Of a stretch of DNA of 64,000 nt, positions 21,281 to 62,174 are shown piece by piece; positions within the stretch are counted from its first letter, which is position 1, and every line of letters begins with the position of its first letter. Origin of the DNA: Oscillospiraceae bacterium (GTDB lineage: Bacteria > Bacillota > Clostridia > Oscillospirales > Oscillospiraceae); assembly GCA_021202845.1 (NCBI GenBank), contig JAJQCF010000028.1, positions 3,796 to 67,795 of the forward strand. Reading direction: 5' to 3'. Position numbers and translations under genes: made by a program. The notes below the pieces were generated by a model. It did not search any database, was not told the origin of the DNA, and saw only the letters and a list, made by a program, of their open reading frames with translations.

Positions 21281-21291
21281 TCGCAAATGTA

Positions 21292-40342: not shown

Positions 40343-40359
40343 TGTTTATGGATTGTTTA
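40343..40359 (+). promoter_or_regulatory. Direct repeat TGTTTA-N5-TGTTTA (candidate OmpR-family response-regulator site)
   Basis: Two identical hexamers with an 11-bp period, 34 nt after the regulator stop and about 110 nt upstream of the next gene. Confidence 0.35.
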
Positions 40360-40466
40360 TGGTTCAGGGGCGAGAAAATTTAACGCGGTGATGTAAAATA
40401 GTCGATGTCGGAATCCCGCGAGATGTTATTCGAGCGCGGGAGCGGAAAGGAAAACTATACTGCCGA

Positions 40467-47056: not shown

Positions 47057-47165
47057 GGAGGAAACCATATGGAAGACAAGCAAATTGCGCTCAAGCCGTC
47101 CGCCGACCCGTTTTATTCCACGGACATATCGACAAGCGGAGTGGGGGAAATTGGAGGGGTGGGGG

Positions 47166-47183
47166 TTAGTTAGAATTGACTAA
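47166..47183. promoter_or_regulatory. TTAGTTAG-AATTGA-CTAA palindromic box (candidate DtxR-like operator)
   Basis: Contains TTAG-N6-CTAA (47170..47183), preceded by a second TTAG. Outer arms are TTAGT/ACTAA. Confidence 0.4.
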
Positions 47184-47301
47184 TAGGGTTTGCAGAAAAT
47201 TGCATTGTGCGACAATGTTGCAGTGATTAAATTATGCAGGGGGTTATTTTGGACATAACGCCGAAAATTTGGTGGGGAGTTAGCGTGGACAAATCTTTTG
47301 C

Positions 47302-47331
47302 TTGACATGATTTGACGCGAGGGTGTATGAT
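47302..47331 (+). promoter_or_regulatory. Candidate promoter TTGACA-18-TATGAT
   Basis: Read directly. Lies in the 600-bp intergenic region ahead of the NEAT-like genes. Confidence 0.4.
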
Positions 47332-47407
47332 TGAGGCGTGACGTAAGGGAGACCTGACGTGCGGTGCGGAAGCAGAGAAATGTTTGTGAAAAATGAATGA
47401 AAATCGT

Positions 47408-47431
47408 ATCCGGCGCGTGACCGGATTTTTC
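47408..47431 (+). terminator. Intrinsic terminator-like hairpin
   Basis: ATCCGG-CGCGTGA-CCGGAT followed by TTTTTC. Confidence 0.5.
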
Positions 47432-47439
47432 AAAGATGC

Positions 47440-47457
47440 TTAGTTAGAATATACTAA
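47440..47457. promoter_or_regulatory. TTAGTTAG-AATATA-CTAA palindromic box (second copy)
   Basis: Near-identical to the box at 47166 and overlaps a possible -10 (TATACT). Lies about 205 nt upstream of the NEAT-like gene start. Confidence 0.4.
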
Positions 47458-47662
47458 CCGCCCTGAAAACGGAGAGGGGTTATGAGAGAAACGGAGCGTC
47501 GGCGGATACGGTGGGCGGCAATGCGGGGCCGGGTTCGCATAAACTAACCTCCCGTGCCGGTCAGCATTTGGTATGCGTTCACGAATAGAACCGAACGGAA
47601 AATCTCCCTCTGTAAAAACCACATTTTGCCGCCGGACAAATCCGGCAGAAAGGAGTCAGAAA

Positions 47663-48118
47663 ATGACTGCAAGACGAAACCTCAAACGGGCAGGAGCCCT
47701 TGTGCTCGCCCTCGCCATGTGCTTCGCACTTGGCGCAACCGCGCTGGCCGACACCGACGTTGGCACTTACAGCGTGACTATCTATCAAGACGGCACGACC
47801 ACAAAATCTATGGCAGATGGCTGCATGGGTGACGCAACCGTTACCCTGTCCGGCACAACCTACACTGTATCCATTCCTCTCACCACCATAACAATGACTT
47901 ACGGTGATTCCACTTACGTCGGAAAAATTACTGATATTGAAATTGAGCAAGCGACAAAATGCAGTGCAGAAGACGATACACTTGTTTTCACTGTATCCAG
48001 CGATGATTTTGCGGAACTCACATTCGATGCCACCATGTCTGTCACTGTTACTGCCATTTCCGGCAGCGGCGGGTATACACATGATAATGTTGCCGCCGAT
48101 ATTGTTTTGAGCAAGTAA
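47663..48118 (+). CDS. Small secreted protein with a single NEAT-like domain (hemophore-like)
   Basis: ATG at 47663 follows AGGAG. It has a signal peptide (MTARRNLKRAGALVLALAMCFALGATALA/DTD) and then about 120 aa: GTYSVTIYQDGTTTKSMADGCMGDATVTLSGTTYTVSIPL...SVTVTAISGSGGYTHDNVAADIVLSK. This follows the NEAT pattern (G.Y.V.f......SMa....a.l.v..g.y.v.l ... Y.h....l). There is no anchor motif. Confidence 0.7.
   Translation: MTARRNLKRAGALVLALAMCFALGATALADTDVGTYSVTIYQDGTTTKSMADGCMGDATVTLSGTTYTVSIPLTTITMTYGDSTYVGKITDIEIEQATKCSAEDDTLVFTVSSDDFAELTFDATMSVTVTAISGSGGYTHDNVAADIVLSK
47750..48115 (+). repeat. Copy 1 of a roughly 366-bp duplicated NEAT-like coding module
   Basis: Long runs of perfect nucleotide identity with 50939..51304, for example a stretch of about 100 nt through CTATCTATCAAGACGGCACGACC...ACTGTATCCATTCC. 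The central third has diverged. Confidence 0.9.
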
Positions 48119-48217
48119 TAACCCCCAACACTGTAGAGGTGCTGTCTCAAAATGGTCTTATAAATCACAAGAGACAGCATCTTCACATTTTCAAATTACA
48201 AACATAAAGGAGTAAAT

Positions 48218-51200
48218 ATGGATATTAAGATATTCAATTTTAGACGCATAACATCCATTTTATTGGTTGCCGTCATGCTTCTTCTTTTCTTGCCGGCGGG
48301 CGTTTTTGCTTCTGATGATGAAGCAAGCGCTGCCGGAGAAAGCGAAACTGCTGCTGTAGAAAGCGCGGAGGCAGAAGCATCAACTGATGCAGACGACGAG
48401 ACTACAGAAACTGCCGAAGCTGCGACAACAGAGACTGCTGAAAACGAAATGAGCACTGATGAAAGCGGCACTGAGGAAAGTTTGACTATCGAAAATTCTC
48501 AAACCGAGGAAACAGAGACATCTGGAGAAAGTGAGGATGCCTCTGCTGCAGAAAATGAAGAAACCTTGATTTCAGTGGCTTCTGCAGAAGCCGAAGAAGA
48601 TACAGGCGCTTATATTGCGGAGGTTTCATATTCTCTCAATGACAGCACCGAAACAGTTAATGTTGCAGACACAGACAGTTTGGTTAATACGCTGGCTGAC
48701 ATTGACACAAGTGCAGCAGATGTTAAGGTAACGTTTTTGAATGACGTTGAATCCGAATGGGCTTCATACGAAATTCCCTGCTCTCTTGAGATAGACCTGA
48801 ACGGAAAAAACGTGTATTTAACCGGGTTATCCAGCGGCACGGCATTTACCATTTCGGCGGATTCTAATTATACCCTGACTGTTTCCGACAGTTCTGAATC
48901 GAATACCGGCGTACTCAAAACAGACGGTGCGGTGTTTAATACGAATGCAGGCACCAAATTGATTATCAATGGCGGAACTTTCATATCAGAAGGTTCTCGT
49001 GTGGTTGTATCTGAAGGCGAGTTGGTTATAAATGGGGGCAATTTTGAGAGTGCAACTGCTAAATCAACAATTCAGTTTCAAGGAACAAGCGCATACATAT
49101 CAAACTGTGATGTTAGAAACCTCTACTCAAGTTCAACCAAAGGGTTTGGAGCTGCTCTTGAGTTATTGAGTTCCGAATATTGTGAAAGTTTTTATTTAAA
49201 AGATTCACAACTAAGTTCCGGCGGCGGAGGTTGTATATACTTCCAGTCACCTCAAGACGAGGTTATATACAATATTGATTCATGCAATGTGGTCGGCGTC
49301 TACGATGCGATTTACGTTAAAAATAATGCAACAGGCGGGACCATTAACCTGCTCGGAGACACAACGCTATACAGCGAAAGCGGCGCGGCGGTGGAATTGA
49401 GAAAATCAGGAACCGGCCTCACGCTCAATTTTTCTGATACTGTTAAGGTGAGTTACAGTGACGCATCAATTCCCGTATTGCCGAGCAGCGCCGTTGCTGC
49501 CTTTCCGGCAGACGAGGACGGAAACCAAATGGTATTTAGTACAGAAGCCGACACCGACGGTTACTACAGCTTTGTAACAACCGCAGGCGTTGTACAATAT
49601 ATGAACGGCTACGAGTATCAAGGTTATCAGTATTTTGGAGACTTTGATGAAACCCTCGCAAGCTCAGAGGAAATTTACAATGCGGGGAATGACGACTCAT
49701 CTTGGGGTTCAGCGCTGTGGAAGGCGTTTAAAACGGCCTATGAAAACGCCTTGGCAGTGAAAGACAACACCAACGCCAACCAGAACGAGATAGACTACTT
49801 CGCAGACGCACTTGCCGCCGCATTGCTTGATTTGAAAGAAAGCAAGGCATCAACAATTAACTTTGACAGTCTGCTCAACGGCGACTACAACGTGAATGTC
49901 TCCATGTGGAACATCGGCTTTACAAATTACTCCATGGCAAATGGCGCGATGAACGAAGACGCGGTTCTGCACATCGGCGACGACGGCGCGTCCGTTACTC
50001 TCACCTTCCACCCGACAACGGCGCTCTTCACCGTCGGCGCGATGACAAACCTTTGGGTATACGAGGGCGAGAGCTTTGAAGCCGGTTACGCCAACCGCGT
50101 TGCGGGAGAAGGGCGCGTTGAGGGCACCTACGGCGACTGGTACACCTATGCCATTGACGACGAGGAAAACCTGACCTACACCACCGAGGCAGCCGAGGAG
50201 GACGCCGACGGCGCGCGCCCCGGCAGCGTCACCATTCCGCTCTATTACCTCGGCACTGACAGTGAGAGCAGAAAAATTTGCGTGCGCATCTCCGTTGACG
50301 TAATGACAGAAATGGGCGTTGGCGACCAAGACGCGATACTCTATCTGGATTACAGCAGCATATCCGCCGTGACGGACACGCTCAGCACCTCGCTCCGCGT
50401 GACGAACAGCGACGGCGAGAGTGCCGAGGACGCAATCACTATTGCCGCAGACAACGAGGGCGACGTGACCCGCACCGTCACGCTGCTGCAGGCGGCGGGC
50501 AGCGGCTATGTCCTTAGCCTCGAAAACAGCAATACGGACGCTGTCTCCGCCGTGCTTGGCGAAGCTGCGACCGAGAGCACAGAGATAGAACAGCTTGACA
50601 TGACCGTGGAGTCCTCGTCCCAGACCCTGACTATCGCAGCGGCGGAGGGACTGGAGGGCACGCAGACCGCAACACTGACGCTGACCGCGACAAACGGCAA
50701 CGACACGCTGACAAAGACCATAGAAGTGACCGTTTCCAGCGAAAAAGCTGTGAAGGTTGAAAGCGTCACCGTCGAAGACGCGACCGCAACCGCGACCCTC
50801 AGCGGCGGCGTTGTGGCGGAAAATGACACCGTGAGCGTCAGCGGCTCCGTCGTCACCGCCGACGCGACTACAGGCAATGCAGACGTCACCGCGGTGAACG
50901 TAATAATTCCGCAGAGCGTGGCCGCCGCGGTGCTGGGCGACACCGCTGTTGACACTTACAGCGTGGCTATCTATCAAGACGGCACGACCACAAAATCTAT
51001 GGCAGATGGCTGCATGGGTGACGCAACCGTTACCCTGTCCGGCACAACCTACACTGTATCCATTCCGCTTACCAGCATCACAATGGATTACGGCGACTCC
51101 ACCTACAGCGGAACGATTTCTGATATTAAGATTAAGCAGGCAAGTGATTGCGATGTGATAAACAATACACTTGTTTTCACTGTATCCAGCGATGATTTTG

Positions 51201-53233
51201 CGGAGCTCACATTCGATGCCACCATGTCTGTCACTGTTACCGCCATTTCCGGCAGCGGCGGGTACACACATAACGATGTTGCCGCCGATATTGTTTTGAG
51301 CAAGGCATCATCAATGCTGGGCGGCTACAGCTCTCTGGTGCTGGCGACCGACGTCGGCAGCGTAACGCTGGACAGCGATATTCTTGCGGGCATAACCGAG
51401 ACCGCAACGCTGACGATTGCCGTCAACAGCACTTACAGCAACTATACCGACGACGACGGCCACGTGTTTGTCTGCGGCTATGACCTGACCCTGAGCACGG
51501 ACTTCAACGGCGGCACGGCGACAGTGAGCGTCCCCTGCGAGAGCACAGATGTTGTTTACGCCTACTGCATAGACGACGACGGCTCCCTTGCCGAGCGCGC
51601 GGCGCTGACCGTAGTCAGCGGCTATGCGAGCTGGAGCACCACCCACTTCTCCACTTGGGCGCTGAGCGAAAAAGAGTACACAATCAGCTCCGGCAGCTCG
51701 TCCGGCGGCTCTTCCGGCGGCTCCTCCAGCAGCACAAGCAGCAGCTTCCTGAACACCGACGGCAACTACCTTGTGACAATCACACTGTACAAGGAGAGCG
51801 CAAACGAGGTTTCCATGGGCGACGTGGCCTTTGAGTACAACCGCAGCGCGCTTGTGACGGTTTCCGGCGGCGAGATAACCTATGTAGAAATTGCCACCAA
51901 CCCCGTCAAGGTTGACCTGTATGTGAGCGCCATGACCGCGCTGGCTCTCACGAACGGCGGAGACGTAGAGGTTCTGGAGCGCGGCGACTTCTCCACAAGC
52001 TACAACGGCACGACCACGAACACATACGAGGACGACAACGGCTACATCAAGCGCGCCAGCTTTGACATGCCCGACGAGGGACAGCCCTCCACGGCGGACT
52101 CCGTGACGTATATCGACGTTACCTTTACCGTTCCCGACACGCCGATGGACGACCTCTATGAAGAGCTTGCCGCGCGTATTCAGTTCGACTGGAGTACCGC
52201 GACAAAGACGAGCAAGAGCCACCTGACCGCTAACACCTCCACCGCGACAGGAAGCAGCAGCAGCGGCGGCGGAACGGCGACCACGGTTGAGGACATTTCG
52301 CTGACCGACAGCGCCACCGGCATCAAACTGGAGACCAACACCAACCGCCTTGACAGCGAGGCGGAGCTGAGAGTTACCGTAGTCACCGAGGGCGACGATT
52401 ACGACAACGCCGCCTCCCTGATGGGTACAGACGACGAGTGGACGCTGTACGAAATTGTCGCGTTGGTTGACGGCACGGTTACAGCTCCCAGCGGCAGCGT
52501 GACGCTGTATATCCCCTGCACCGACGAGGAAGGACTGACCGTCTACCGCATAAACGACAGCGGACGCACCGTCATCAAGGGCTCCGTCAGCGGCAGCTAC
52601 TACACCTTCACCACCAGCTCCCTCGGCCTGTTTGCGATAATCGGCAGCGTGGCCGACGCGGACGAAATTGTTCAGGTCTCCGAGAGCGGCTTCACGGACA
52701 TCGTGGGCCACTGGGCGGAGGAGTACATCGAAACGGTTGTGCAGCGCGGTCTGTTCAACGGCACGGGCGAGACGACATTCGACCCCGACAGCGGCCTGAC
52801 GCGCGGAATGTTCGTGACGGTTCTCGGACGGCTGTACGGCATTGACGCCGAGGCGGAGTTCACCAACGCCTTTGGCGATGTGGACGCCGAGGCATACTAC
52901 GCGCCGTACATAGCTTGGGCGAGCGAAAACGGCATTGTCAACGGCACGGGTGACGACACGTTCGAGCCCGACCGCGAGATAACCAGACAGGAAATGGCGA
53001 CCATAATGAGCCGCTACTTCGAGTTCGCGGAAATCACTCCGCTGGACGGCGAGGCGGTCAGCTACGCCGACGACGCCGACATTGCGGACTGGGCGCGCGA
53101 GGGCGTTGAAAACATGACGAAGGCCGGTTTGTTCTCCGGCACGGACAAGAACGAATTCAACCCGCTCGGCACAGCAACCAGAGCCGAGGCCGCGACGGTG
53201 TTCGCAAGGCTCATAGGCAGCTATGGTCTGTAA
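48218..53233 (+). CDS. Large SLH-anchored surface protein: signal/TM, acidic linker, beta-helix-like region, three NEAT-like domains, two Ig-like modules, three SLH domains
   Basis: 1671-aa ORF. A repetitive NGG/beta-helix-like segment lies at about 48785..49630. NEAT-like segments lie at about 49860..50360 (GDYNVNVSMWNIGFTNYSMANGAMNEDAVLHI), 50939..51304 and 51752..52195 (GNYLVTITLYKESANEVSMGDVAFEYNRSALVTV). Three SLH repeats at 52688..53230 begin FTDIVGHWAEEYI, FGDVDAEAYYAPYI and YADDADIADWAREGV. Confidence 0.85.
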   Translation: MDIKIFNFRRITSILLVAVMLLLFLPAGVFASDDEASAAGESETAAVESAEAEASTDADDETTETAEAATTETAENEMSTDESGTEESLTIENSQTEETETSGESEDASAAENEETLISVASAEAEEDTGAYIAEVSYSLNDSTETVNVADTDSLVNTLADIDTSAADVKVTFLNDVESEWASYEIPCSLEIDLNGKNVYLTGLSSGTAFTISADSNYTLTVSDSSESNTGVLKTDGAVFNTNAGTKLIINGGTFISEGSRVVVSEGELVINGGNFESATAKSTIQFQGTSAYISNCDVRNLYSSSTKGFGAALELLSSEYCESFYLKDSQLSSGGGGCIYFQSPQDEVIYNIDSCNVVGVYDAIYVKNNATGGTINLLGDTTLYSESGAAVELRKSGTGLTLNFSDTVKVSYSDASIPVLPSSAVAAFPADEDGNQMVFSTEADTDGYYSFVTTAGVVQYMNGYEYQGYQYFGDFDETLASSEEIYNAGNDDSSWGSALWKAFKTAYENALAVKDNTNANQNEIDYFADALAAALLDLKESKASTINFDSLLNGDYNVNVSMWNIGFTNYSMANGAMNEDAVLHIGDDGASVTLTFHPTTALFTVGAMTNLWVYEGESFEAGYANRVAGEGRVEGTYGDWYTYAIDDEENLTYTTEAAEEDADGARPGSVTIPLYYLGTDSESRKICVRISVDVMTEMGVGDQDAILYLDYSSISAVTDTLSTSLRVTNSDGESAEDAITIAADNEGDVTRTVTLLQAAGSGYVLSLENSNTDAVSAVLGEAATESTEIEQLDMTVESSSQTLTIAAAEGLEGTQTATLTLTATNGNDTLTKTIEVTVSSEKAVKVESVTVEDATATATLSGGVVAENDTVSVSGSVVTADATTGNADVTAVNVIIPQSVAAAVLGDTAVDTYSVAIYQDGTTTKSMADGCMGDATVTLSGTTYTVSIPLTSITMDYGDSTYSGTISDIKIKQASDCDVINNTLVFTVSSDDFAELTFDATMSVTVTAISGSGGYTHNDVAADIVLSKASSMLGGYSSLVLATDVGSVTLDSDILAGITETATLTIAVNSTYSNYTDDDGHVFVCGYDLTLSTDFNGGTATVSVPCESTDVVYAYCIDDDGSLAERAALTVVSGYASWSTTHFSTWALSEKEYTISSGSSSGGSSGGSSSSTSSSFLNTDGNYLVTITLYKESANEVSMGDVAFEYNRSALVTVSGGEITYVEIATNPVKVDLYVSAMTALALTNGGDVEVLERGDFSTSYNGTTTNTYEDDNGYIKRASFDMPDEGQPSTADSVTYIDVTFTVPDTPMDDLYEELAARIQFDWSTATKTSKSHLTANTSTATGSSSSGGGTATTVEDISLTDSATGIKLETNTNRLDSEAELRVTVVTEGDDYDNAASLMGTDDEWTLYEIVALVDGTVTAPSGSVTLYIPCTDEEGLTVYRINDSGRTVIKGSVSGSYYTFTTSSLGLFAIIGSVADADEIVQVSESGFTDIVGHWAEEYIETVVQRGLFNGTGETTFDPDSGLTRGMFVTVLGRLYGIDAEAEFTNAFGDVDAEAYYAPYIAWASENGIVNGTGDDTFEPDREITRQEMATIMSRYFEFAEITPLDGEAVSYADDADIADWAREGVENMTKAGLFSGTDKNEFNPLGTATRAEAATVFARLIGSYGL
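50939..51304 (+). repeat. Copy 2 of the duplicated NEAT-like coding module (inside the large surface protein gene)
   Basis: See copy 1. The encoded peptides differ mainly in the middle (ITMTYGDSTYVGKITDIEIEQATKCSAEDD versus ITMDYGDSTYSGTISDIKIKQASDCDVINN). Confidence 0.9.
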
Positions 53234-53331
53234 ACATTCGCACCTAAAGCAAAAACAGTAATCCCAAACACCTTGCCGGACGGCGGAGGGGCAAACCTCT
53301 CCGCCGCCTCGGCAGGGCGTAAACCGTTTTC

Positions 53332-53359
53332 AAAGCCGCAGAGACAGCTTTGCGGCTTT
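53332..53359 (+). terminator. Candidate terminator after the large surface protein gene
   Basis: Stem AAAGCCGCA / TGCGGCTTT. A second GC-rich hairpin lies at 53282..53305. Confidence 0.45.
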
Positions 53360-53386
53360 GAAAACAGCTTATGCGGAGGCAGGATA

Positions 53387-54205
53387 ATGAAGGAATTAAC
53401 CGTAAGACAGATGGAGTATCTCCTGCTGTTTGCAACCCACAAATATTCCGAGGCGGGCATGACGAGCGCCGCGGACGAGTTCGGAGTGACAAAGGCGACG
53501 GCCTGCGTCACCGTTGACGCGCTCGAAAGGGCGGGCATGATTACCCGCGGCGAGCTTGGCGAAATCGCGCCCACCGAGGTGGGCGGCGAGATTATAGCGC
53601 CGAGGGTGAAGGCGTTCCATATAGTCAGCGGCTGGATGATGGAGCACATGGGTCTGCTGCCGATAAGAGCGGAGCAGGCCGCAAGGACAATAGTCTGCTC
53701 GCTGGACGACGATATAATCGAAAAATTCCTTAAATATAACAATCAGCCCGCCGCGCCGAAGTCGGAGAGCGAGGATGCCCTTCTCGAAAATCTGCCATAC
53801 GGCGTTTATACGGTGGACTTTGAGGTGAGAAAAAAAGGCAGGACGGAGCTGTCTATGGCAAACGCCGGCTTTCTCAAGCCGGCAATGGCTCTGCGGGAAA
53901 ACGAACGCAGCCTTTTCACGCTCTGCCCTATAAGCATAACGCGGAACATTCGCCTTATGCCCAAACGCTCGGCCATTCTGGAAACGATGTGGTATTACCA
54001 CGGCGACTCGTGGCGCGAGGCGCAGAGCTCTCCCACGGGAGTGACGATTCCCGGGTACGCGATGCGCTTCGACCCCGTTCGCAAGACAGCAACAGTGCGC
54101 GTGCGCATGAGGACGTCCATTTCCCTGCGCTATATGCCGGAGAGCGAGGCGGACATCGTGTTTTTCCTCACCTCATGTGCGGAAGATGAGAAAGTATACT
54201 TATAA
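53387..54205 (+). CDS. DtxR-like winged-helix regulator fused to a C-terminal NEAT-like domain
   Basis: ATG at 53387 follows GGAGG. Residues 1-115 align by eye with the DtxR/MntR N-terminal and dimerisation regions (RQMEYLLLF...AADEFGVTKATACVTVDALERAGMITR...KAFHIVSGWMMEHMGL). Residues from about 135 onward (nt 53789 onward) read GVYTVDFEVRKKGRTELSMANAGFLKPAMALRENERSLFTL...TVRVRMRTSISLRYMPESEADIVFFL, which is NEAT-like. No signal peptide. Confidence 0.75.
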   Translation: MKELTVRQMEYLLLFATHKYSEAGMTSAADEFGVTKATACVTVDALERAGMITRGELGEIAPTEVGGEIIAPRVKAFHIVSGWMMEHMGLLPIRAEQAARTIVCSLDDDIIEKFLKYNNQPAAPKSESEDALLENLPYGVYTVDFEVRKKGRTELSMANAGFLKPAMALRENERSLFTLCPISITRNIRLMPKRSAILETMWYYHGDSWREAQSSPTGVTIPGYAMRFDPVRKTATVRVRMRTSISLRYMPESEADIVFFLTSCAEDEKVYL

Positions 54206-54235
54206 TTACATATACAAATCAGCGAGGTAAAAGAC

Positions 54236-55195
54236 ATGAGAGCAAAAACATTTGTATCCGCGCTGCTGTGCGCCGCGCTGCTGGCGGGCACTGCGGCGGT
54301 AAACGCAATGGCGCTGCAAACGGGAGCCTACACCGGCAGCGTGACAACCAGCTACTATAACCCCGACACGGGAAATGTTGACGACGGCGGTACGTCCAAC
54401 GCCGCGCTGGGCGAGGGAATGTGCCGCTCCGCCACCGCAAAAACGGGGCTTGTGGAAATAGACGGCGACGGAAACGTGTGGGTCACCATTCGCCTGCAGC
54501 TCCAAAGCAGCTGCAGCAACGTGGCGTTCTACACGCGCACGGGCTACGACAGCTATTCCAAGGTCAGCTACACCATTACCGCCGAGGACAGCGGCAATGA
54601 CTCCATAGACTACCGCTTTGCGATTCCCAGCGCCGGCACCTACATAAAGGCCACGATGTATGTGACGCCTATGGGGCGCGACGTGCTGTGGTATCTCTGG
54701 GTAGACACCTCAACGCTTACTTCCGGCAGCGGAGATTTTGTTGTGAGCATAGACCTTTCCGAATCCGCGGCTCCAACCGAAACAGAGGCTCCCGCGGAGA
54801 CTGCCGCGCCCGCCGAAACAGAGACACCGGACGAAACGCCGACGCCCGCCGAGACGCAGATGGCGGCTGAAACCGAGTCTCCGGCGGAAACGGCGCAGCC
54901 CGCCGCGGCCGAGCAGACCGCCGAGCCTGCCGCAGCCGAGTCTCCGCAGGAGACGACGGAGGCCGTAAGCACGGACGAGGACGACGCGGCGGACGTTAGC
55001 TCCGACGTGAGCGCCGCCGCGCCCGTCGAAGCCGACGAAGCCGACGAGGCCGCGAGCTCTGCGGACAGTGCCGACGAAGCGGAAAACGCGGACGAGGAAA
55101 GCCCCGCCGTATCCGGCGCTGTAATCGCTGTCATCGTGGTCATAGCCGCCGCGGCAGCAGTCGGCGCGGTATGCTGTGTGAAAAGGAAGCGGTGA
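54236..55195 (+). CDS. Shp-like heme-binding cell-surface protein with acidic linker and C-terminal TM anchor
   Basis: Signal peptide present. YNPDTGNVDDGGTSNAALGEGMCRS... and ...ATMYVTPMGRDVLWYLWVD match my recollection of Streptococcus pyogenes Shp (YRHPISGQIEDSGG...GQGMVEG and MFVEPMGREVVFYL), including both Met ligand positions. A PAET-rich linker follows, then AVIAVIVVIAAAAAVGAVCCVKRKR. Confidence 0.8.
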   Translation: MRAKTFVSALLCAALLAGTAAVNAMALQTGAYTGSVTTSYYNPDTGNVDDGGTSNAALGEGMCRSATAKTGLVEIDGDGNVWVTIRLQLQSSCSNVAFYTRTGYDSYSKVSYTITAEDSGNDSIDYRFAIPSAGTYIKATMYVTPMGRDVLWYLWVDTSTLTSGSGDFVVSIDLSESAAPTETEAPAETAAPAETETPDETPTPAETQMAAETESPAETAQPAAAEQTAEPAAAESPQETTEAVSTDEDDAADVSSDVSAAAPVEADEADEAASSADSADEAENADEESPAVSGAVIAVIVVIAAAAAVGAVCCVKRKR

Positions 55196-55198
55196 GCT

Positions 55199-56167
55199 AT
55201 GAGAAGGATTATTCTTGTCTGCATTGCCCTGTCCTTGGCTCTGGCGCTCTGCGCCTGCGTTGACCAGCACCCCGAAGAAGATACAGCGGCGGAAAGCACC
55301 GCTGCGGCGGAAAACGCGGCCGCGAATGAAGATGTGGAGGAGCCTGCGCGCATTATAGCGACGTCTTACTCAACCATACTTATATGTGACAAGCTGGGGC
55401 TTGACCTTGTGGCCGTTTGCTCAACCTCCGGCGAGCTGCCGGAGCGCTATCAGGATTTGCCCACCGTCGGCACGGCCATGTCTCCCGATGCGGAAGCCAT
55501 AGCTCTCTTGGAGCCGACGGATGTTATCGGCCCCGACACGCTGGCCGAGACAATAGAGCCTACATATCAGGCAGCGGGGGTGCCCTACACCTTCATAGAT
55601 TTGCAGAGCGTTCAGGGAATGTACGACAGCATTGCCATGCTGGGAGAAAAATACGGCGTGTCGGAGGCCGCCGATACGCTCATTGCCGAATATGAGGAAA
55701 TTTTAGCGGACTTCCAAACAAGCATTGAGGGCGAGGAGCAGCCGACGGTGCTGCTGCTCATGGGTCTGCCCGGAGCTTACATAGAGTGTACGCCCAACTC
55801 CTATGCCGGTTCGCTGCTGGAGCTTGCGGGAGCGGTGAACGTGGTACAGGTTGACGACGAGATGAACTTTGTCTCATGGAACACCGAGGAGCTTTTGGCG
55901 CTTGACCCCGATTACATACTGCTGACGGCTCACGGCCTGCCGGAGCTGGCTATGGAAATGTTCGCCGAGGAGTTTACTACCAACGACATTTGGAAGCATT
56001 TCAGAGCTGTCGAGGACGGGCACGTATATCAGCTTGACTATACGCTCTTCGGCATGAGCTGCACGTTTGACTGGCCGGAGGCGCTTGCAGTTTTGCAGGA
56101 AATACTGTACAGCGAAACATATGAGGCTTACGACGCGGAGGCTGCCTACCTTGAAAACAATTCATAA
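55199..56167 (+). CDS. Heme/siderophore-type ABC substrate-binding lipoprotein (Peripla_BP_2, HtsA/SiaA-like)
   Basis: Lipobox LALCAC. Class III binding-protein pattern (IIATSYST...LDLVAV...LEPTDVIGPD...). Sits directly after the Shp-like gene, as in shp-htsABC. Confidence 0.8.
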   Translation: MRRIILVCIALSLALALCACVDQHPEEDTAAESTAAAENAAANEDVEEPARIIATSYSTILICDKLGLDLVAVCSTSGELPERYQDLPTVGTAMSPDAEAIALLEPTDVIGPDTLAETIEPTYQAAGVPYTFIDLQSVQGMYDSIAMLGEKYGVSEAADTLIAEYEEILADFQTSIEGEEQPTVLLLMGLPGAYIECTPNSYAGSLLELAGAVNVVQVDDEMNFVSWNTEELLALDPDYILLTAHGLPELAMEMFAEEFTTNDIWKHFRAVEDGHVYQLDYTLFGMSCTFDWPEALAVLQEILYSETYEAYDAEAAYLENNS

Positions 56168-57146
56168 GGACATTTTCAAAGGTGTGGTCGGCTGCGCTGT
56201 GCTTGCCGCAATGATTTTTGCACTGACGCTGATTGCCATGAAACTCGGCAGCATCAGCATTACATACGGCGATTTGTTCAATGGCCTGTTCGTAGCCTAT
56301 GATAAACGCGTTGCGGTTATATATGACCTGCGGTTCCCGCGCATTATAGTAGCGCTGCTGGGCGGCGCGGCGCTGAGCTGCTCGGGACTGCTTTTTCAGG
56401 CTGTTCTGCGCAATCCGCTGGCCGACCCCGGCATTATCGGAATATCCGGCGGAGCCTCTCTGGCGGCGTCCGCTGTGACGGCGCTCTTCCCCGCGCTGTA
56501 TTTATCCGTACCGCTCATTGCCTTTTTTGGCGGTCTGGCAGCGTTCGCGGTAATATATTCTTTGTCATGGAAGGGCACGCTTGACCCCGTGAGGATTATC
56601 CTTGTAGGAATTGCCGTTGCCGCAGTGTTCACCGGACTTGGCGAGGTGCTGAACGGCATTGCCGACAGCACAGGAGTGTCGGTCAGCGTCAGCGGGCTTT
56701 CCCAACTCGTGTGGTCCGACGTGCGCATGATGGCGCTGTATTCCGCTGTCGGAATAGTGCTGGCCGCCGCACTGTCTCCCGCCTGTAATCTGCTGGCACT
56801 GGACGACAAAACTGTTCGCGGCCTCGGCGTTCGCGTTGACCGTCTGCGGCTTACCATTTCCGCCGTTGCCGTTCTGCTGGTAAGCGGCGTGACCGCGGTT
56901 ATCGGCGTAGTGGGTTTCCTTGCGCTTATTGTGCCCCATATGGCGCGGCGAATTGTTGGCTCCGACCATAGAGTGCTTGTGCCGTTTTGTGTCCTGCTGG
57001 GCGGCTTCGTCCTGCTTCTTGCCGACACAGCGGGGAGGCTGATTGCTTCCCCCAACGAGATTTCCGCAAGCATTATTATGAGCATAGTAGGCGGCCCATT
57101 CTTTATCTTTCTGCTCAAGCGAGGCGACAGACATGGTAAGCATTGA
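56151..57146 (+). CDS. FecCD-family ABC permease
   Basis: Polytopic ORF with RNPLADPGIIGISGGASL and other motifs typical of FecCD/BtuC. I prefer the TTG at 56151, after GGAGG; the track ORF begins at 56067. Confidence 0.85.
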   Translation: MKTIHKDIFKGVVGCAVLAAMIFALTLIAMKLGSISITYGDLFNGLFVAYDKRVAVIYDLRFPRIIVALLGGAALSCSGLLFQAVLRNPLADPGIIGISGGASLAASAVTALFPALYLSVPLIAFFGGLAAFAVIYSLSWKGTLDPVRIILVGIAVAAVFTGLGEVLNGIADSTGVSVSVSGLSQLVWSDVRMMALYSAVGIVLAAALSPACNLLALDDKTVRGLGVRVDRLRLTISAVAVLLVSGVTAVIGVVGFLALIVPHMARRIVGSDHRVLVPFCVLLGGFVLLLADTAGRLIASPNEISASIIMSIVGGPFFIFLLKRGDRHGKH

Positions 57147-57897
57147 ACATCTCACATTCTCCTATGACGGCCGGCCCGTATTGAATGACCTCTCCATTAA
57201 GATTAAAGACGGCGTAATAACCACCCTTTTGGGGGCAAACGGCTGCGGCAAAACCACGCTCCTGCAGCTGATGACAAAAAACCTCAAGCCGACTTGCGGA
57301 GCGATAAAGCTGGACGGCAGAGAGCTTAAAGACATATCGGTTAAAGAGTTTGCCCGCCGAGCGGCGATTGTTCATCAAAAAAATATAGCTCCCGACGACC
57401 TCAGCGTGGAGCGCCTTGTCAGCTATGGACGTCTGCCGTACAGCTCAATTTTCAGGCCGGGGCTGAACGAGGAAAATCAGGAGCAGGTGGAGCGGGCATT
57501 AAAGCTGACGAATATGGATACGCTGCGCGAGCGGCACGTTGGAACACTCTCCGGAGGACAGCGGCAGCGAGCGTTTATTGCAATGGCTCTGGCGCAAAAT
57601 ACGCGGCTGCTCTTTTTGGATGAACCGACCACGTTTCTCGATGTGCGTTATCAGGTGGAAATACTGCGCTTGGTAAAAACGCTGAACAAAGAGCAGGGCA
57701 TCACGATAGTCATGGTGCTCCACGACATCAATCAAGCGCTGACCTACTCGGATGAGGTGATAGGACTGCACGGCGGGAAGGCCGTTTTGCAGGGTGCTCC
57801 CGAGGATGTAATCAGCACGGAGAGCATACGCACGCTTTACGGCGTAGAGCTCCCGGTTTTTCACAGCGGCGGAAGGCTCTGCGTTATGGCGGTATAG
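57133..57897 (+). CDS. Heme/siderophore ABC transporter ATP-binding protein
   Basis: Walker A GANGCGKTT, signature LSGGQRQR, Walker B LLFLDEPT, H-loop VLHD. Confidence 0.9.
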   Translation: MVSIEHLTFSYDGRPVLNDLSIKIKDGVITTLLGANGCGKTTLLQLMTKNLKPTCGAIKLDGRELKDISVKEFARRAAIVHQKNIAPDDLSVERLVSYGRLPYSSIFRPGLNEENQEQVERALKLTNMDTLRERHVGTLSGGQRQRAFIAMALAQNTRLLFLDEPTTFLDVRYQVEILRLVKTLNKEQGITIVMVLHDINQALTYSDEVIGLHGGKAVLQGAPEDVISTESIRTLYGVELPVFHSGGRLCVMAV

Positions 57898-57900: not shown

Positions 57901-58311
57901 ATGAAAGGTGCGGCTTTAACAATGAAAATATTTTTTATAATGCTCGGGCTTGTATGTCTCGGACTGGGCTGCATAGGCGTTGCGCTGCCGATACTGCCCA
58001 CCACGCCCTTCCTGCTTGCGGCGGCGTTCTGCTTTGCCAAAAGCTCCGAGCGCCTTAGCAACTGGTTCATGGGAACAAGGCTATATAAAAATAATCTTGA
58101 ACCCTTTGTGCGCGGAAATGGCATGACGTGGAGGGCGAAGCTGCGTATTATGGCAACTGTGACCGTTATTATGGTAATTGCTTTTATTGCTATGCGCGGC
58201 ACGACGGTCGGCAGGATATGTCTTGCCGTGGTGTGGGCGGCACATATCATAGCGTTTTGTTTTATTATCAAAACCTGTCCCCGTGAGGGAGAAAGCGGGG
58301 AAGAAAAATGA
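57901..58311 (+). CDS. ybaN: YbaN / DUF454 family inner-membrane protein
   Basis: GCIGVALPILPTTPFLLAAAFCFAKSS.RL..W is the DUF454 signature. The start is either 57901 or the ATG at 57922. Confidence 0.7.
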   Translation: MKGAALTMKIFFIMLGLVCLGLGCIGVALPILPTTPFLLAAAFCFAKSSERLSNWFMGTRLYKNNLEPFVRGNGMTWRAKLRIMATVTVIMVIAFIAMRGTTVGRICLAVVWAAHIIAFCFIIKTCPREGESGEEK

Positions 58312-60056
58312 TGATAAGCAAGCGTTTTTCGGCCATGCTGCCGGATATAAAACGCTTTATTTACGGCAAGGTATTTGTGAACTGGGTCTCGCTGCTGTCC
58401 GGCATATTGCTGTGGTTTGCCGTGGCGGATTTGCTGGAGCAGGCGCTGAACGGTCAGCTCTCAGCGGGCGGCACTGCGAGAGGCGTATGCATCGTCCTTG
58501 TGTGCGCGGCGGTCCGCTTTGTGCTGACGAAAGCCTCTGCGGAGCTGACGCACAGGGCTACTTCCCGCGTTAAGCTAAAGCTGAGGGAGCTGCTGTACGG
58601 AAAGCTCTGCCGTCTCGGCACAGACTATACGGACGCTTTTCCAACAGCGGAGGTCGTGCAGCTCGCGGGAGAGGGCGTGGAACAGCTGGAGAGCTATTAC
58701 GGCAATTTTCTTCCGCAGCTTTACTATGCGGTTCTGGCCCCAGTGACGCTTTTTGCGGTGTTCCTGCCTCTCTCACCGCTGACGGCTATAGTGCTTTTTG
58801 TCTGCGTGCCCCTGATTCCGGCTGCCATAATGTCCGTTGCGAAGGCCGCAAAGCGAATGATGGGAAAGTATTGGGATGCTTATGCCAATTTGGGCGACAG
58901 CTTTCTGGAAAACCTGCAAGGGCTGACAACTCTTAAAATCTATGGCGCTGACGAACGGCGCCACAGGCAAATGAATGAGGAAGCTGAACATTTCAGAAAA
59001 GTTACCATGAAGGTTCTCACCATGCAGCTCAATTCCGTAACAATCATGGATTTCGTAGCCTACGGCGGTACGGCGCTCGGCAGCATTTTATCCGTGTATG
59101 CGTTTATGAACGGACGGGTTTCATTCGGCGGCGCTGCTGCCATGATACTGCTTGCAAGCGAATTTTTCCTCGCCATGCGCGCGCTCGGCAGCTATTTTCA
59201 CGTTGCCATGAACGGAGCGGCGGCGAGCGAGAGAATGCTGCGGCTGCTCGACCTGCCGGAGCGCACAGACGGTGAGGCAGACATAAAGGACGGGGAAATA
59301 TCATTTGAAAATCTCAGCTTTTCTTATGGCAACGACAAAAAAGCCTTGGATTGTGTGAGCTTCATCGTTCCGCAGGGGAGTTTCGCTGCGGTCTGCGGCG
59401 AAAGCGGCTGCGGCAAGAGCACGCTGGCCTCAATTCTCGGCGGTTTGCGTTGCGGCTACAGCGGCAGCGCCTCAGTCGGCGGAACAGAGCTAAGCGCCGC
59501 GAAGTCGCAATGCCTGAGAAAACTGGTAACCGTCGTTTCAACAAACAGCTATATTTTCTCCGGCTCCATAAGGGATACTCTTTTGGAGGGAAAGCCGGAT
59601 GCCAATGACGAAGAGCTGTTGAATGCGCTGAAGCAGGTCAATCTTTTTGATTTTGTGCAGTCTCAGGGCGGGCTGGACATGAGCGTATCGGAGCGCGGCG
59701 CAAGTCTCTCCGGCGGGCAGAGGCAGCGTTTGGCGCTTGCGCGGGCGCTCTTGAGGGACAGTCCGATATATGTTTTCGACGAGGCGACAAGCAATATCGA
59801 CGCCGAAAGTGAGGCGGATATTATGAACGTAATACATTCTCTGCGCGGCAGGCATACGATTGTGCTCATATCCCACCGCCTTGCGAATGTAGTGGAAGCC
59901 GATTTTATAGCATATCTCAGCCGCGGCAAAATAGCGGAAATGGGAACACACTCGGAGCTTATAGGGCAAGGCGGAGAATATGCCGCAATGTATGCCGCAC
60001 AGCGGGAACTTGAACAAATAAGGGAGGGTGAAAAACAGTGCGCAGAAGCGGTTTGA
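58308..60056 (+). CDS. cydD: ABC exporter, fused permease/ATPase, CydD-like
   Basis: 582 aa with six TM helices plus an NBD (GESGCGKST, LSGGQRQR, VFDEATS). The N-terminal region resembles CydD-type thiol exporters, but the subfamily call is tentative. Confidence 0.6.
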   Translation: MMISKRFSAMLPDIKRFIYGKVFVNWVSLLSGILLWFAVADLLEQALNGQLSAGGTARGVCIVLVCAAVRFVLTKASAELTHRATSRVKLKLRELLYGKLCRLGTDYTDAFPTAEVVQLAGEGVEQLESYYGNFLPQLYYAVLAPVTLFAVFLPLSPLTAIVLFVCVPLIPAAIMSVAKAAKRMMGKYWDAYANLGDSFLENLQGLTTLKIYGADERRHRQMNEEAEHFRKVTMKVLTMQLNSVTIMDFVAYGGTALGSILSVYAFMNGRVSFGGAAAMILLASEFFLAMRALGSYFHVAMNGAAASERMLRLLDLPERTDGEADIKDGEISFENLSFSYGNDKKALDCVSFIVPQGSFAAVCGESGCGKSTLASILGGLRCGYSGSASVGGTELSAAKSQCLRKLVTVVSTNSYIFSGSIRDTLLEGKPDANDEELLNALKQVNLFDFVQSQGGLDMSVSERGASLSGGQRQRLALARALLRDSPIYVFDEATSNIDAESEADIMNVIHSLRGRHTIVLISHRLANVVEADFIAYLSRGKIAEMGTHSELIGQGGEYAAMYAAQRELEQIREGEKQCAEAV

Positions 60057-61687
60057 AAATTATGCTCGGTCTGCTTGGCCTTGTTAAGCCTTTGGCGCAT
60101 ATTATGCTGGCCGCTGTAGCAATGGGAACGGTGGGATATTTGTGCGCGATATCCATTACCGTTCTTGCCGTAAATATGCTGCTGACCTCCATGCATATAT
60201 CGCCGTGGCCGCTGTCTCTCAGCGCAGCAGCGGCGCTGATGCTGCTCTGCGCCCTGATGCGCGCCGCTCTGCGCTACGGAGAGCAGACCTGCGGCCACTA
60301 CATAGCGTTCAGACTGCTTGCCGTCATTCGTGACAGAGTTTTTGGCGCACTGCGCCGTCTGGCTCCCGCAAAGTTAGAGGGCAGAGGGCGCGGCGACCTT
60401 ATCTCGCTTATAACGGGAGACATAGAACTGCTGGAAGTTTTCTATGCCCACACGATAGCACCCGTCTGCATCGCGTTTTTGGTGTCTTTAACCGAGGCGA
60501 TTTTGATTAGCACGCTGTCACTGCCGCTCGGCTTGCTGGCAATTATATCGTACATCCTCGTCGGCTGTGTTATTCCCTTGGCCTCGGCACGCGCGGAGAA
60601 ATCCCGCGGAATGTCTGCCAGAAACAAACTCGGCGGGCTAAACTCTTTTTTTCTTGAATCCCTGCGCGGTATCCGCGAAACGCTGCAATATGGGCAGAAT
60701 GAAAAGCGCGCGCGGCGTGTTCAAAAGAAAACAGATGAGCTTAACAAAATTCAGGGCGAAATAAAGCGACACGAGGGAACAACCTCTGCACGTTCCGGAG
60801 CGGCGGTAACGCTCCTGACCCTTGCAATGTTTTTGGCCGGTTTGGCGCTGAGTGTAGATTTTTCGACGCTCGTTTTGACAACAGTGACGCTTTCAGCCTC
60901 ATTCGGACCCGTCCTTGCGCTTTCCAACCTCTCGGCTGCGCTCGGTCAAACGCTGGCCGCGGGAGAAAGAGTGCTGTCGCTGCTGGAGGAAATTCCCGAA
61001 ACCGAGGACATCACAAACGGTGAAACGCCGGAATATACGGGCGCGGAAGTCAAAAATCTCACATTTGCCTATGGCAGCGAGGAAATACTGCATGACCTTT
61101 CCGCGCAATTCCCGGCAGGTCAAATTGTGGCCGTAACAGGAAAAAGCGGCTCCGGCAAGAGTACGCTTTTGAAATTGCTTATGCGTTTTTGGAGCGCCGG
61201 AGACGGACAGGTGAACATCTCAGAAAGAGACATAGGTAAAATAAATACTGCCTGCCTGCGGGCAATGGAAGGCTATATGACACAGGAAAGCGACCTTTTC
61301 CATGACAGCATTGCCGACAACATCGGCATCGGCAAACCGGATGCCACAAGAGCGGAAATAGAAAACGCCGCCAAGAAGGCCTCGCTGCATGATTTCGTTA
61401 TTTCGCTGCCCAAAGGCTATGATACGCCCGTAGGGGAACTGGGCGAAACGCTCTCAGGAGGCGAACGCCAGCGCATAGGGCTCGCGCGCGCATTTCTGCA
61501 CGATGCGCCGCTGATGCTTTTGGACGAGCCGACCAGCAACCTTGACAGTCTGAACGAAGGCGTAATACTCAAGGCATTGCGTGAAAACCGTCAGGCAGGA
61601 CATACAGTGGTGCTGGTATCTCACCGCAAATCCACCCTTGCAATCGCCGACGCCTCTTACGCCGTGGAAAACGGTCGCTTCTGCTGA
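60038..61687 (+). CDS. cydC: ABC exporter, fused permease/ATPase, CydC-like
   Basis: 549 aa with NBD motifs GKSGSGKST, LSGGERQR, LLDEPTS. GTG start follows GGGAGGG and overlaps the upstream gene by 19 nt, as expected for a heterodimer partner. Confidence 0.6.
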   Translation: MRRSGLKIMLGLLGLVKPLAHIMLAAVAMGTVGYLCAISITVLAVNMLLTSMHISPWPLSLSAAAALMLLCALMRAALRYGEQTCGHYIAFRLLAVIRDRVFGALRRLAPAKLEGRGRGDLISLITGDIELLEVFYAHTIAPVCIAFLVSLTEAILISTLSLPLGLLAIISYILVGCVIPLASARAEKSRGMSARNKLGGLNSFFLESLRGIRETLQYGQNEKRARRVQKKTDELNKIQGEIKRHEGTTSARSGAAVTLLTLAMFLAGLALSVDFSTLVLTTVTLSASFGPVLALSNLSAALGQTLAAGERVLSLLEEIPETEDITNGETPEYTGAEVKNLTFAYGSEEILHDLSAQFPAGQIVAVTGKSGSGKSTLLKLLMRFWSAGDGQVNISERDIGKINTACLRAMEGYMTQESDLFHDSIADNIGIGKPDATRAEIENAAKKASLHDFVISLPKGYDTPVGELGETLSGGERQRIGLARAFLHDAPLMLLDEPTSNLDSLNEGVILKALRENRQAGHTVVLVSHRKSTLAIADASYAVENGRFC

Positions 61688-61785: not shown

Positions 61786-62174
61786 CGCTTGCTGGTGTCT
61801 TCTCCCCAAACCCCTATTACAGCATGTTCTGTTGGTGCAAGCAACAAGATGATTTGGTTGGTGGGACAAGCCCGCCTTTTTAATAGGCCGCAGTTGGCGC
61901 GGGGCGCGCCTCGTGCCATACTCACGTCCTTTCGATGGAGTTTGGCAGCTTTTATCTTACAGGATTTTCGGGGGTGTGGTCTACTTTTTTCATATCCAAG
62001 AAAAATGTTGGTGCAGCCCTTCGCCTGCGGCGGTGGGTTACCCCAACATTTATAATAGTACCCTTTCTTTTTTCGACACATTACCCATAGAAAAGTTTCA
62101 ATTTACAAAAAAGTTTGGTTATATTAATATAATTTTAGGCAAAGTCCCAAACAAAAAAGAAAAGAGGTATTTCA

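Follow-up and report, generated by a model that had tools for sequence, protein, structure and literature searches.

A probable heme acquisition and homeostasis island of Oscillospiraceae with a predicted DtxR-NEAT regulator

How do commensal anaerobes of the gut obtain heme, and how is its supply controlled? Heme acquisition has been studied almost only in pathogens, and both the heme supply of commensal gut anaerobes and its regulation are largely unknown. The question is raised in concrete form by a locus in an Oscillospiraceae metagenome-assembled genome (GC content approximately 58-60%), of which a stretch of 64,000 nucleotides was analyzed (contig JAJQCF010000028.1, positions 3,796 to 67,795; referred to here as the window). 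A first-pass annotation had read positions 47060-57897 of the window as a composite heme acquisition island of a high-GC, Clostridia-like anaerobe. All of the genes that were named are present on the plus strand where they had been placed: seven consecutive genes at 47663-57897 encode a secreted NEAT protein, a giant SLH protein, a regulator, Shp, a binding protein, a permease and an ATPase. The end of the island at 57897 had to be revised, as the conserved unit reaches 61687 and includes genes for DUF454, a CydD-like and a CydC-like protein, which follow the importer in nearly every related locus. The region from 47.1 to 61.9 kb is probably one conserved island for heme acquisition and homeostasis of the Oscillospiraceae. 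Its import part can be grouped with systems of the Shr-Shp-HtsABC and Cht type, as a member or a variant, and its real novelty is the regulator. Gene content, folds, conservation of ligand residues, synteny and enrichment of palindromic boxes were computed for this locus and its relatives. The features are summarized in Table 1.

Table 1. Coordinates of the features of the island in the window
Feature	Position	Strand	Basis or remark
Stop of penicillin-binding-protein gene	47056	+	Island genes lie 3' of it
Box 1, candidate operator GTTAGAATTGACTAAT	47169..47184	.	GTTAG-N6-CTAAC, 1 mismatch; 5' of island
Best sigma-70-like promoter match, TTGACA-18-TATGAT	47302..47331	+	11/12; consensus match only
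Box 2, perfect palindrome GTTAGAATATACTAAC	47443..47458	.	Overlaps -10 hexamer of second promoter-like site 47427-47455
Box 3 GTTCGCATAAACTAAC	47533..47548	.	1 mismatch; in 600-nt leader
Secreted anchorless single-NEAT protein, hemophore-like, 151 aa from MTARR	47663..48118	+	Pfam NEAT, AlphaFold2 model and its PDB matches
S-layer-anchored multi-NEAT surface protein, 1671 aa	48218..53233	+	Signal peptide, NEAT-like domains A, B and C, three SLH repeats
NEAT-like domain A, approximately aa 550-712	49865..50353	+	Pfam NEAT, 27.5 bits, E = 4.7e-6
NEAT-like domain B, aa 908-1029, with M928 and Y1016-T-H1018	50939..51304	+	Lineage-specific copy of the small protein
NEAT-like domain C, approximately aa 1180-1330, with S1199-M1200 and M1310 (TPMD)	51755..52207	+	hhalign
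Three SLH repeats, non-covalent cell-wall anchor	52685..53233	+	PF00395, 118 bits, 3 stretches
Perfect 15-bp inverted repeat, no T-run	53326..53365	+	RNA fold stem of 18 bp; between surface-protein and regulator genes
Regulator, 272 aa, no signal peptide	53387..54205	+	DtxR/IdeR/MntR fold, aa 1-120; NEAT fold, aa ~135-266
Shp-family heme-relay protein, C-terminal transmembrane anchor	54236..55195	+	PF11545, 157.7 bits (gathering score 26.4)
IsdE/HtsA-type heme-binding lipoprotein, class III binding protein	55199..56167	+	NCBIfam TIGR03659, IsdE equivalog
FecCD-family permease, 331 aa	56151..57146	+	PF01032, 266 bits
Importer ABC ATPase	57133..57897	+	PF00005; nearest iron and heme ABC ATPase families
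DUF454 membrane protein	57901..58311	+	PF04304, 121.6 bits
CydD-like ABC exporter half-transporter	58308..60056	+	TIGR02857, 392.4 bits (cut-off 435); synteny
CydC-like ABC exporter half-transporter	60038..61687	+	TIGR02868, 326.8 (cut-off 329.05)
Putative terminator, hairpin and T-run after last island gene	61860..61876	+	Consensus match only

Proposed capture, relay and import of heme

Profiles, ligand residues, folds and synteny all give good support to the reading of the locus as a system for heme capture and import. The class III binding lipoprotein, the FecCD permease and the ATPase of the first-pass annotation are all confirmed by Pfam or NCBIfam, and the Shp-like protein has both methionine ligand positions as proposed: aligned with the heme domain of Streptococcus pyogenes Shp (2q7a; E = 1.6e-15), its M62 and M146 fall on M66 and M153 of Shp. 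The Shp motifs GEGM and PMGR are invariant in 14 homologues. The C-terminus of the protein (AVIAVIVVIAAAAAVGAVCCVKRKR) is a membrane anchor, and its gene lies directly 5' of the heme lipoprotein gene. With 315.5 against an equivalog cut-off of 298.65, the binding protein is assigned to TIGR03659, and it matches IsdE (2q8p; E = 2.7e-54) and Listeria Lmo2184 (5joq; E = 4.8e-58). In the alignment with 2q8p, its M94 and H245 fall on the IsdE motifs GQPM and LPHG; the axial ligands of IsdE are taken here to be M78 and H229, in the numbering of the established IsdE structures.

Heme is by far the likeliest substrate because the Met/Met pair of Shp and the Met/His pair of the IsdE-type protein are both kept and there is no riboswitch. 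Searches of the window and of the 600-nt leader against Rfam matched no RNA family, and control of the island by a riboswitch is thereby ruled out. Vitamin B12 and siderophores, too, are taken up by transporters built from class III binding proteins, FecCD permeases and their ATPases, weaker NCBIfam matches to such families are found, and the NEAT-like domains do not have the canonical tyrosine pair, all of which would suit a corrinoid, another metalloporphyrin or a siderophore. Such a ligand is nevertheless very improbable given the passed IsdE cut-off with both heme ligands in place, the strength of the Shp match with its two methionines, the heme-ligand histidine kept in the CydC-like protein, and a window and leader with neither a cobalamin nor any other riboswitch.

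Related loci were collected by exact-protein look-ups and by a scan of species-representative genomes with a 9-sequence alignment. In 11 further sequence-distinct loci, which include those of Flintibacter porci P01025, Flavonifractor sp. An92 and Candidatus Pseudobutyricicoccus lothianensis, the genes follow the order regulator, shp, binding protein, permease, ATPase, (DUF454), cydD-like and cydC-like to the extent that the contigs cover it; one of them, L014, ends after shp. The surface genes lie 5' of the regulator gene in the order (small secreted protein), giant SLH protein with domain A, and SLH protein of approximately 530 aa with domain C. One protein carries both A and C in this window and in L009, and in most related loci domain C is carried by the separate, shorter SLH protein. 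In one lineage an IS110-family transposase gene on the opposite strand stands between the ATPase gene and DUF454 (L002 14605-15852, L003 11003-12250, L004 10872-12119) and splits an otherwise contiguous island. Two tandem copies of a GC-hairpin-rich sequence of approximately 170 nt (GTAGGGGCGAC...GTCGCCCCTAC) occur between the two SLH genes of L014 (2045-2395).

The small protein at the 5' end of the island had been described as a secreted, anchorless, single NEAT-like protein, and this description holds. Its signal peptide covers residues ~1-28 and ends at ALA/DT, and nothing follows the NEAT domain that could serve as an anchor. Single-sequence searches of the small protein and of the regulator against PDB sequences gave no useful match, and an iterative search connects the small protein to canonical multi-NEAT proteins. 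Only 3 close homologues were found in 5.8 billion sequences, and canonical NEAT domains from the iterative search were for that reason put into the alignment for its AlphaFold2 (AF2) model. The model has a predicted local distance difference test score (pLDDT) of 94.2, and 14 of the 14 top PDB matches are NEAT domains, IsdX1 and IsdC (2o6p; E = 1.3e-4, template modeling (TM) score ~0.6) among them, as the earlier reading had expected. Domains of this type are immunoglobulin-like beta-sandwiches of eight strands. Aligned with canonical NEAT domains, the protein has the lip residues S49-M50, of which the serine is invariant in that alignment, and Y138-T-H140 at the axial-ligand position. Orthologues in other lineages carry Met near this position (QMDPTF, FMDHV, GHMP), and it is therefore uncertain whether Y138 or H140 would be the ligand.

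The giant protein was likewise correctly described as an SLH-anchored protein of 1671 aa with three NEAT-like domains: the SLH repeats are matched by their profile, domains A and C are recognized by hhalign, and domain B is a copy of the small protein. Domain A aligns with NEAT over its N-terminal half (probability 96.7%, E = 3e-10), and its S572-M573 and M696 (VDxM) are invariant in 7-8 orthologous domains. Domain C aligns over 121 columns (probability 95.7%, E = 8.6e-9), M1310 falls on the column of the axial tyrosine, and SMG and PM are invariant in its orthologues. Domain B shares approximately 85% protein identity with the small protein and 88.9% DNA identity (47747-48115 against 50927-51310). 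Giant orthologues in other loci do not have this domain, and it looks like a recent duplication and insertion of the hemophore-like module into the receptor gene. A homologue search with residues 540-1345 returned one near-identical fragment only and was swamped by low-complexity words. N-terminal to domain A (aa 1-545, 48218-49850), the signal peptide is followed by approximately 100 acidic residues rich in Thr, Glu and Ala, a low-complexity region that causes a dip in GC content to 45%. The next ~400 aa have no confident Pfam match, with a weak FIVAR-like helical segment just 5' of domain A, and could be a hemoprotein-binding or adhesive module.

The island thus has six NEAT-superfamily domains (the small protein, A, B, C, Shp and the regulator), and a conserved Met pair is present in four of them (A, C, Shp and the regulator). 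The YxxxY pair is absent from all of the NEAT-like domains. In domain A and the regulator a conserved Met is found and the Tyr pair is missing. The small protein and domain B retain the first member of the pair (YTHDN, YTHND), with Asn or Asp in place of the second. The module GGYTH(D/N)(N/D)V, to which attention had been drawn as a departure from YxxxY, is therefore real, but it is limited to these two of the six domains. The NEAT lip serine before strand 2 (S-x-M or S-M) is kept, and SM is invariant in the orthologues of A and C and conserved to at least 90% in the regulator family. Most of the NEAT-like domains here carry Met rather than Tyr at the predicted axial position. The small and giant proteins are extracellular as expected of NEAT proteins, by their signal peptides and the SLH repeats; the regulator is not.

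These features suggest a route by which heme would move inward. The secreted NEAT protein and the S-layer-anchored multi-NEAT protein would capture heme outside the wall and hand it inward through NEAT-fold domains, most of them with Met at the axial position as in Shp. Heme would then pass to the membrane-anchored Shp (Met/Met) and on to the IsdE/HtsA-type lipoprotein (Met/His), and the FecCD permease and its ATPase would import it. The direction of transfer and the binding of heme by each domain are inferred, the latter from homology and residue conservation only.

Several results weigh against this reading. The profiles PF11545 and PF00395, which the first-pass annotation had expected to match, did so, but all matches to Pfam NEAT (PF05031) remain under its gathering score of 32.8 bits: 23.8 bits for the small protein (E = 6.3e-5), 27.5, 20.1 and 16.2 bits for domains A, B and C, and 19.3 bits for the regulator, with E-values over these five from 4.7e-6 to 0.015. 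The canonical NEAT domains in the alignment of the small protein favor a NEAT fold in its model. Alignments by hhalign of the Shp family with domains A and C and with the regulator domain are not significant (probability ~2%), so that the term Shp-like bis-Met describes position only in these domains. For domain A and the regulator, the C-terminal Met is placed at the axial position by secondary structure, with no significant alignment over it.

A DtxR-fold regulator with a NEAT-fold domain

A regulator had been noted at this place by the first-pass annotation, which missed its architecture; the AF2 model, Foldseek and profiles all point to a DtxR fold followed by a C-terminal NEAT fold. The model, built from a 9-sequence alignment (pLDDT 80.8), begins with a winged helix-turn-helix followed by three long helices, together residues 1-119; a linker then leads to a domain made wholly of beta strands (139-266). 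Its Foldseek matches in the PDB are NEAT domains (Hbp2-N2, E = 4e-6; IsdX2-N5, TM 0.69; IsdX1, IsdA and IsdC; 4e-6 to 1e-4) and proteins of the DtxR family (SloR, IdeR and DtxR, E ~1e-4; also DR2539). A 90-sequence profile of the regulator family gives the same division against the PDB, with MntR (1.5e-15) and SloR, IdeR and DtxR (1e-14 to 1e-11) over positions 1-120, and IsdX2-N5 (8.8e-9) and IsdX1 over positions 135-191. The C-terminal domain aligns with NEAT in hhalign with a probability of 97.5%. Among the 90 members, Pfam NEAT is matched by 46, Fe_dep_repress by 24 and Fe_dep_repr_C by 15. A profile search of 1.84 billion representatives gave 1899 matches, 61 of them below 1e-30. More than 100 matches are full-length proteins of approximately 270 aa, and at least 100 clusters at 50% identity share the architecture; the profile also matches large multi-NEAT proteins, via residues 130-180 only. 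One member of the family, P0013 (414 aa), has two tandem NEAT-like domains after the DtxR-like domain.

What has been lost and what has been kept in this family both bear on its signal. The seven metal ligands of IdeR, which are taken here from the established DtxR/IdeR structures, are M10, H79, E83, H98, C102, E105 and H106. In these columns the regulator has E10, F77, S81, E96, R100, V103 and C104 and the family consensus reads e, v, t, e, r, v and l, so that none of the seven is kept. The SH3-like or FeoA-like C-terminal domain of DtxR, IdeR and SloR, which MntR does not have, is replaced by the NEAT fold. The residues conserved to at least 90% in the 90 sequences, which reach down to approximately 20% identity, include S156, M157, F162, P165, M250, P251 and A255. 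The lip motif SMGDxGFxKPA is very like the canonical NEAT motif SVMDxYxxKPA, and M250, P251 and A255 lie just before the last strand. From this conservation, it is proposed that the NEAT domain of the regulator binds heme via the Ser-Met lip and the Met-Pro motif. The domain would bind cytoplasmic heme, and heme as co-regulator would replace the metal of DtxR and exert feedback on the island. No description of a NEAT-containing transcription factor was found in the literature search, and a published survey reports that none of 343 NEAT domains belonged to a cytosolic protein (PMC4143258).

The three boxes in the leader belong to a palindrome, GTTAG-N6-CTAAC, that recurs across the loci. An 18-nt repeat (TTAGTTAGAATWKACTAA) had been considered as the operator and was dropped when comparison of the loci refined it to this form. 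The window has 6 sites at no more than 1 mismatch against 0.85 expected, and the window and loci together (297 kb) have 11 perfect sites against 0.24 in shuffles; in the same 297 kb, no perfect pair of half-sites occurs with any other spacer from 0 to 12. Ten of the 11 perfect boxes lie between genes in or adjoining the clusters, mostly 5' of the genes for the small protein, the regulator or the exporter, and the eleventh lies at a feo promoter. The half-sites GTTAG and CTAAC are those of the DtxR/IdeR box consensus. They stand one helical turn apart here, which fits a single winged helix-turn-helix dimer. In the island promoter, GTTAG-N6-CTAAC is likely to be the operator of a DtxR-family dimer, either this regulator or an iron-dependent paralogue.

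The choice between the two is made harder by the feoA-feoA-feoB operon of the window (18138-21310, minus strand). Its promoter has boxes at 21263 and 21289, one perfect and one with 1 mismatch, and a third box lies between feoA and feoB at 20657. The presence of the box at both feoAAB and the island marks it as that of an iron/heme regulon, and for the same reason its assignment to the NEAT regulator is uncertain. The island could be an ordinary iron-repressed heme operon, in which a global iron-dependent DtxR-type repressor encoded elsewhere binds the boxes at feo and at the island, and the NEAT-like domain of the local regulator is a structural or dimerization module, or binds another ligand, and does not sense heme. 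Such a repressor would fit the feoAAB box at least as well as the NEAT regulator does, and the identity of the half-sites with those of the DtxR/IdeR box suits it. Canonical DtxR genes with Fe_dep_repr_C adjoin the island in L002, L005 and L010, and the box is constant although the NEAT regulators differ in their recognition helices. These points also weigh against the reading of the island given above. On the other side, conservation among the 90 family members is highest at the NEAT heme pocket, in the lip and the Met-Pro motif, and with the metal ligands of the DtxR scaffold gone another signal must act. The box lies directly 5' of the regulator gene in L016, L006 and L009 and, in L017, directly 3' of it and ahead of the exporter genes, and there is no canonical DtxR gene near any of these four. 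Across the related loci the regulator is always linked to heme genes, and in the window it is the only DtxR-like gene. The account by a global iron repressor is judged unlikely.

The boldest reading of the regulator is that it belongs to a sizeable family of one-component cytoplasmic heme sensors, in which a NEAT fold, so far known only from extracellular proteins, would have taken the place of both the metal site and the SH3-like domain. They would hold heme between two Met ligands, bind GTTAG-N6-CTAAC operators and control the mainly Met-ligated relay, the CydDC-like exporter and even feoAAB in gut Clostridia that are strict anaerobes. This reading is put forward tentatively, as quite possible but a little short of probable. 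That the regulator senses heme, in which direction it acts on transcription and which protein occupies the boxes are likewise matters of inference.

Two further observations concern transcription. In L005, the region 5' of the small gene has a DtxR/IdeR-type box (TTAGCTTAGGCTAACC), with half-sites 1 bp apart, and an N6-spaced box (467-485 and 524-541), and this locus adjoins a canonical Fe_dep_repr_C gene; the arrangement suggests separate iron and heme inputs at one promoter. The inverted repeat between the surface-protein and regulator genes of the island folds with a dG of -46.8 kcal/mol (z -6.75) and may be an attenuator or a transcript-stabilizing hairpin. Non-homologous GC-rich hairpins stand at the same position in L013 (~7915-7975), L012 (~7930-7985), L002 (~9930-9975) and L011 (~6940-6985), which suggests a conserved site of attenuation or transcript processing that uncouples expression of the surface proteins from that of the transporter.

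Exporter-like genes and the possible fate of imported heme

The DUF454, CydD-like and CydC-like genes extend the island beyond import. The transmembrane half of the CydC-like protein has E. coli CydC (8ips) as its best PDB match (E = 4e-12), and H87 aligns with H85; for the whole protein, similarity of the nucleotide-binding domain to ABCB1 dominates the comparison with the PDB. In E. coli, His85 of CydC is an axial ligand of heme, and CydDC is now viewed as a heme transporter for the assembly of cytochrome bd (PMC11442138). Two more distant loci, with regulators of approximately 20% identity, separate the modules: in L016 the regulator precedes a canonical NEAT protein, Shp and the importer, and in L017 it precedes a DUF454-CydD fusion and then a CydC-like gene. 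The regulator therefore travels with both the import and the export module, and DUF454 belongs with the exporter. The L017 fusion (9122-11248; 708 aa) joins DUF454 to the N-terminus of the CydD-like protein (DUF454, ABC_membrane, ABC_tran) and lies directly 3' of the regulator-family gene. Together these arrangements hint that DUF454 (YbaN-like) may work with CydDC-type heme transporters. A DUF454 gene is induced by iron restriction in Avibacterium paragallinarum (PMC7970244).

The DUF454 and CydDC-like proteins would probably return heme into or across the membrane, either to supply membrane hemoproteins or as overflow. Both half-transporters score just under the NCBIfam equivalog cut-offs, no cydAB is found in the window or adjoining the related loci, and neither the island nor its flanks encode a heme oxygenase or an anaerobic heme-degrading enzyme; these are further points to be set against the island as a system of heme acquisition and homeostasis. 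Because no heme-degrading enzyme is encoded nearby, salvage of heme as a cofactor is as plausible as the acquisition of iron. A heme-auxotrophic anaerobe might take up intact heme and pass it through DUF454 and the CydDC-like pair to hemoproteins such as cytochrome bd. This would agree with the role now given to CydDC and with the CydDC-like pair, its heme-ligand His kept, beside the importer in nearly all loci and fused to DUF454 in L017. The operator-like box common to the island and feoAAB suggests an iron regulon instead, and the window holds no cytochrome bd genes. Cofactor salvage is thus a possible but rather doubtful account of the island, and it is a variant of heme acquisition and homeostasis and compatible with it.

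The gene 3' of 61687 is unrelated and encodes a secreted esterase-like protein. On the 5' side, 38190-41075 encodes a histidine kinase with an OmpR-type response regulator, a zinc-dependent phospholipase C family protein and a GT4 glycosyltransferase; FHA-FtsW/RodA and class B penicillin-binding-protein genes follow, and no link of these genes to the island was seen.

Comparison with known systems

Among the literature matches listed, none concerns NEAT proteins or heme uptake in Oscillospiraceae, and the island offers a concrete and conserved candidate that is present in the cultured Flavonifractor sp. An92 and Flintibacter porci. If the regulator binds heme, the NEAT fold would extend from extracellular heme chaperone to intracellular sensor, a metalloregulator scaffold would have been re-wired from metal to heme sensing, and a new class would join the few heme-responsive transcription factors of bacteria. 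Met at the axial position and the link between the importer, the CydDC-like pair and DUF454 give leads on the handling of heme under anoxic conditions and on the function of DUF454. The literature search found neither a DtxR-NEAT regulator, nor a predominance of Met-type NEAT domains, nor SLH anchoring together with a secreted NEAT protein, nor a fixed link to a CydDC-like exporter with DUF454.

The first-pass annotation had regarded the island as a combination, not described before, of elements known from separate lineages. This was overstated: the sia operon and the cht locus of Clostridium perfringens already unite NEAT, Shp-like and HtsA-like parts (PMC5026354). NEAT, Shp and Hts-type import together are not new. 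What sets the island apart from these two is its regulator, the attached exporter and the use of SLH anchoring alongside a secreted NEAT protein. In the sia operon of S. pyogenes (shr-shp-htsABC, with the DtxR-family repressor MtsR), as here, a NEAT receptor is encoded 5' of Shp, followed on the same strand by a Met/His lipoprotein, a FecCD permease and an ATPase; Shp has two Met ligands and a C-terminal membrane anchor, and control is by the DtxR family. Unlike in S. pyogenes, the receptor here is SLH-anchored and much larger, there is an additional secreted NEAT protein, and in most NEAT domains Met occupies the place of Tyr. The gene for the DtxR-family regulator lies within the operon, and its product has no metal ligands and carries a NEAT fold; DUF454 and the CydDC-like exporter are attached.

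The cht locus of C. perfringens (ChtD, ChtE, ChtABC) is likewise clostridial, and combines the multi-NEAT ChtD, the Shp-like single-NEAT ChtE with both Met and the HtsA-like ChtA; the Cht NEAT domains have no YxxxY, yet the proteins bind heme (PMC5026354). The Cht proteins are anchored by sortase-type or C-terminal hydrophobic signals and not by SLH repeats, no CydDC-like module is described for them, and the words "regulator" and "DtxR" are not mentioned in the passages searched (PMC5026354). Fur boxes lie 5' of the cht genes.

Bacillus anthracis has secreted, anchorless NEAT proteins (IsdX1, IsdX2) and, in BslK, a NEAT protein on three SLH repeats (PMC4143258), and IsdX1 and IsdX2-N5 are among the best structural matches of the island domains. 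In B. anthracis the domains rely on the canonical tyrosine pair and supply IsdC, IsdE and IsdF via sortase-anchored proteins, whereas there is no sortase or LPXTG protein among the island genes and Shp takes the position of IsdC. The Isd type of system as a whole (S. aureus, B. anthracis) differs in its sortase-anchored NEAT proteins and IsdG-type oxygenase. Neither is found here: no heme oxygenase is among the island genes, and the anchors are SLH repeats and a transmembrane helix.

The regulator resembles DtxR, IdeR, MntR and SloR in its N-terminal winged helix-turn-helix and helical dimerization fold, in its profile and in the half-sites of the box, and departs from them in having none of the seven IdeR N-domain metal ligands, in the NEAT domain that replaces the SH3-like or FeoA-like domain, and in a half-site spacing of 6 bp in place of 1. 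With HrtR, HatR, HsmR, PefR, FhtR, Irr, HssRS and ChrSA it would share the role of a cytoplasmic or membrane sensor that couples heme to transport genes (PMC11442138, PMC12670364), although those are TetR, MarR, Fur-like or two-component proteins, none with a NEAT domain or a DtxR scaffold. The CydDC-like pair, finally, corresponds to E. coli CydDC as a heterodimeric type IV ABC exporter with CydC His85 aligned; it scores just below the equivalog cut-offs, and its genes have a heme importer and DUF454 as neighbors in place of cydAB.

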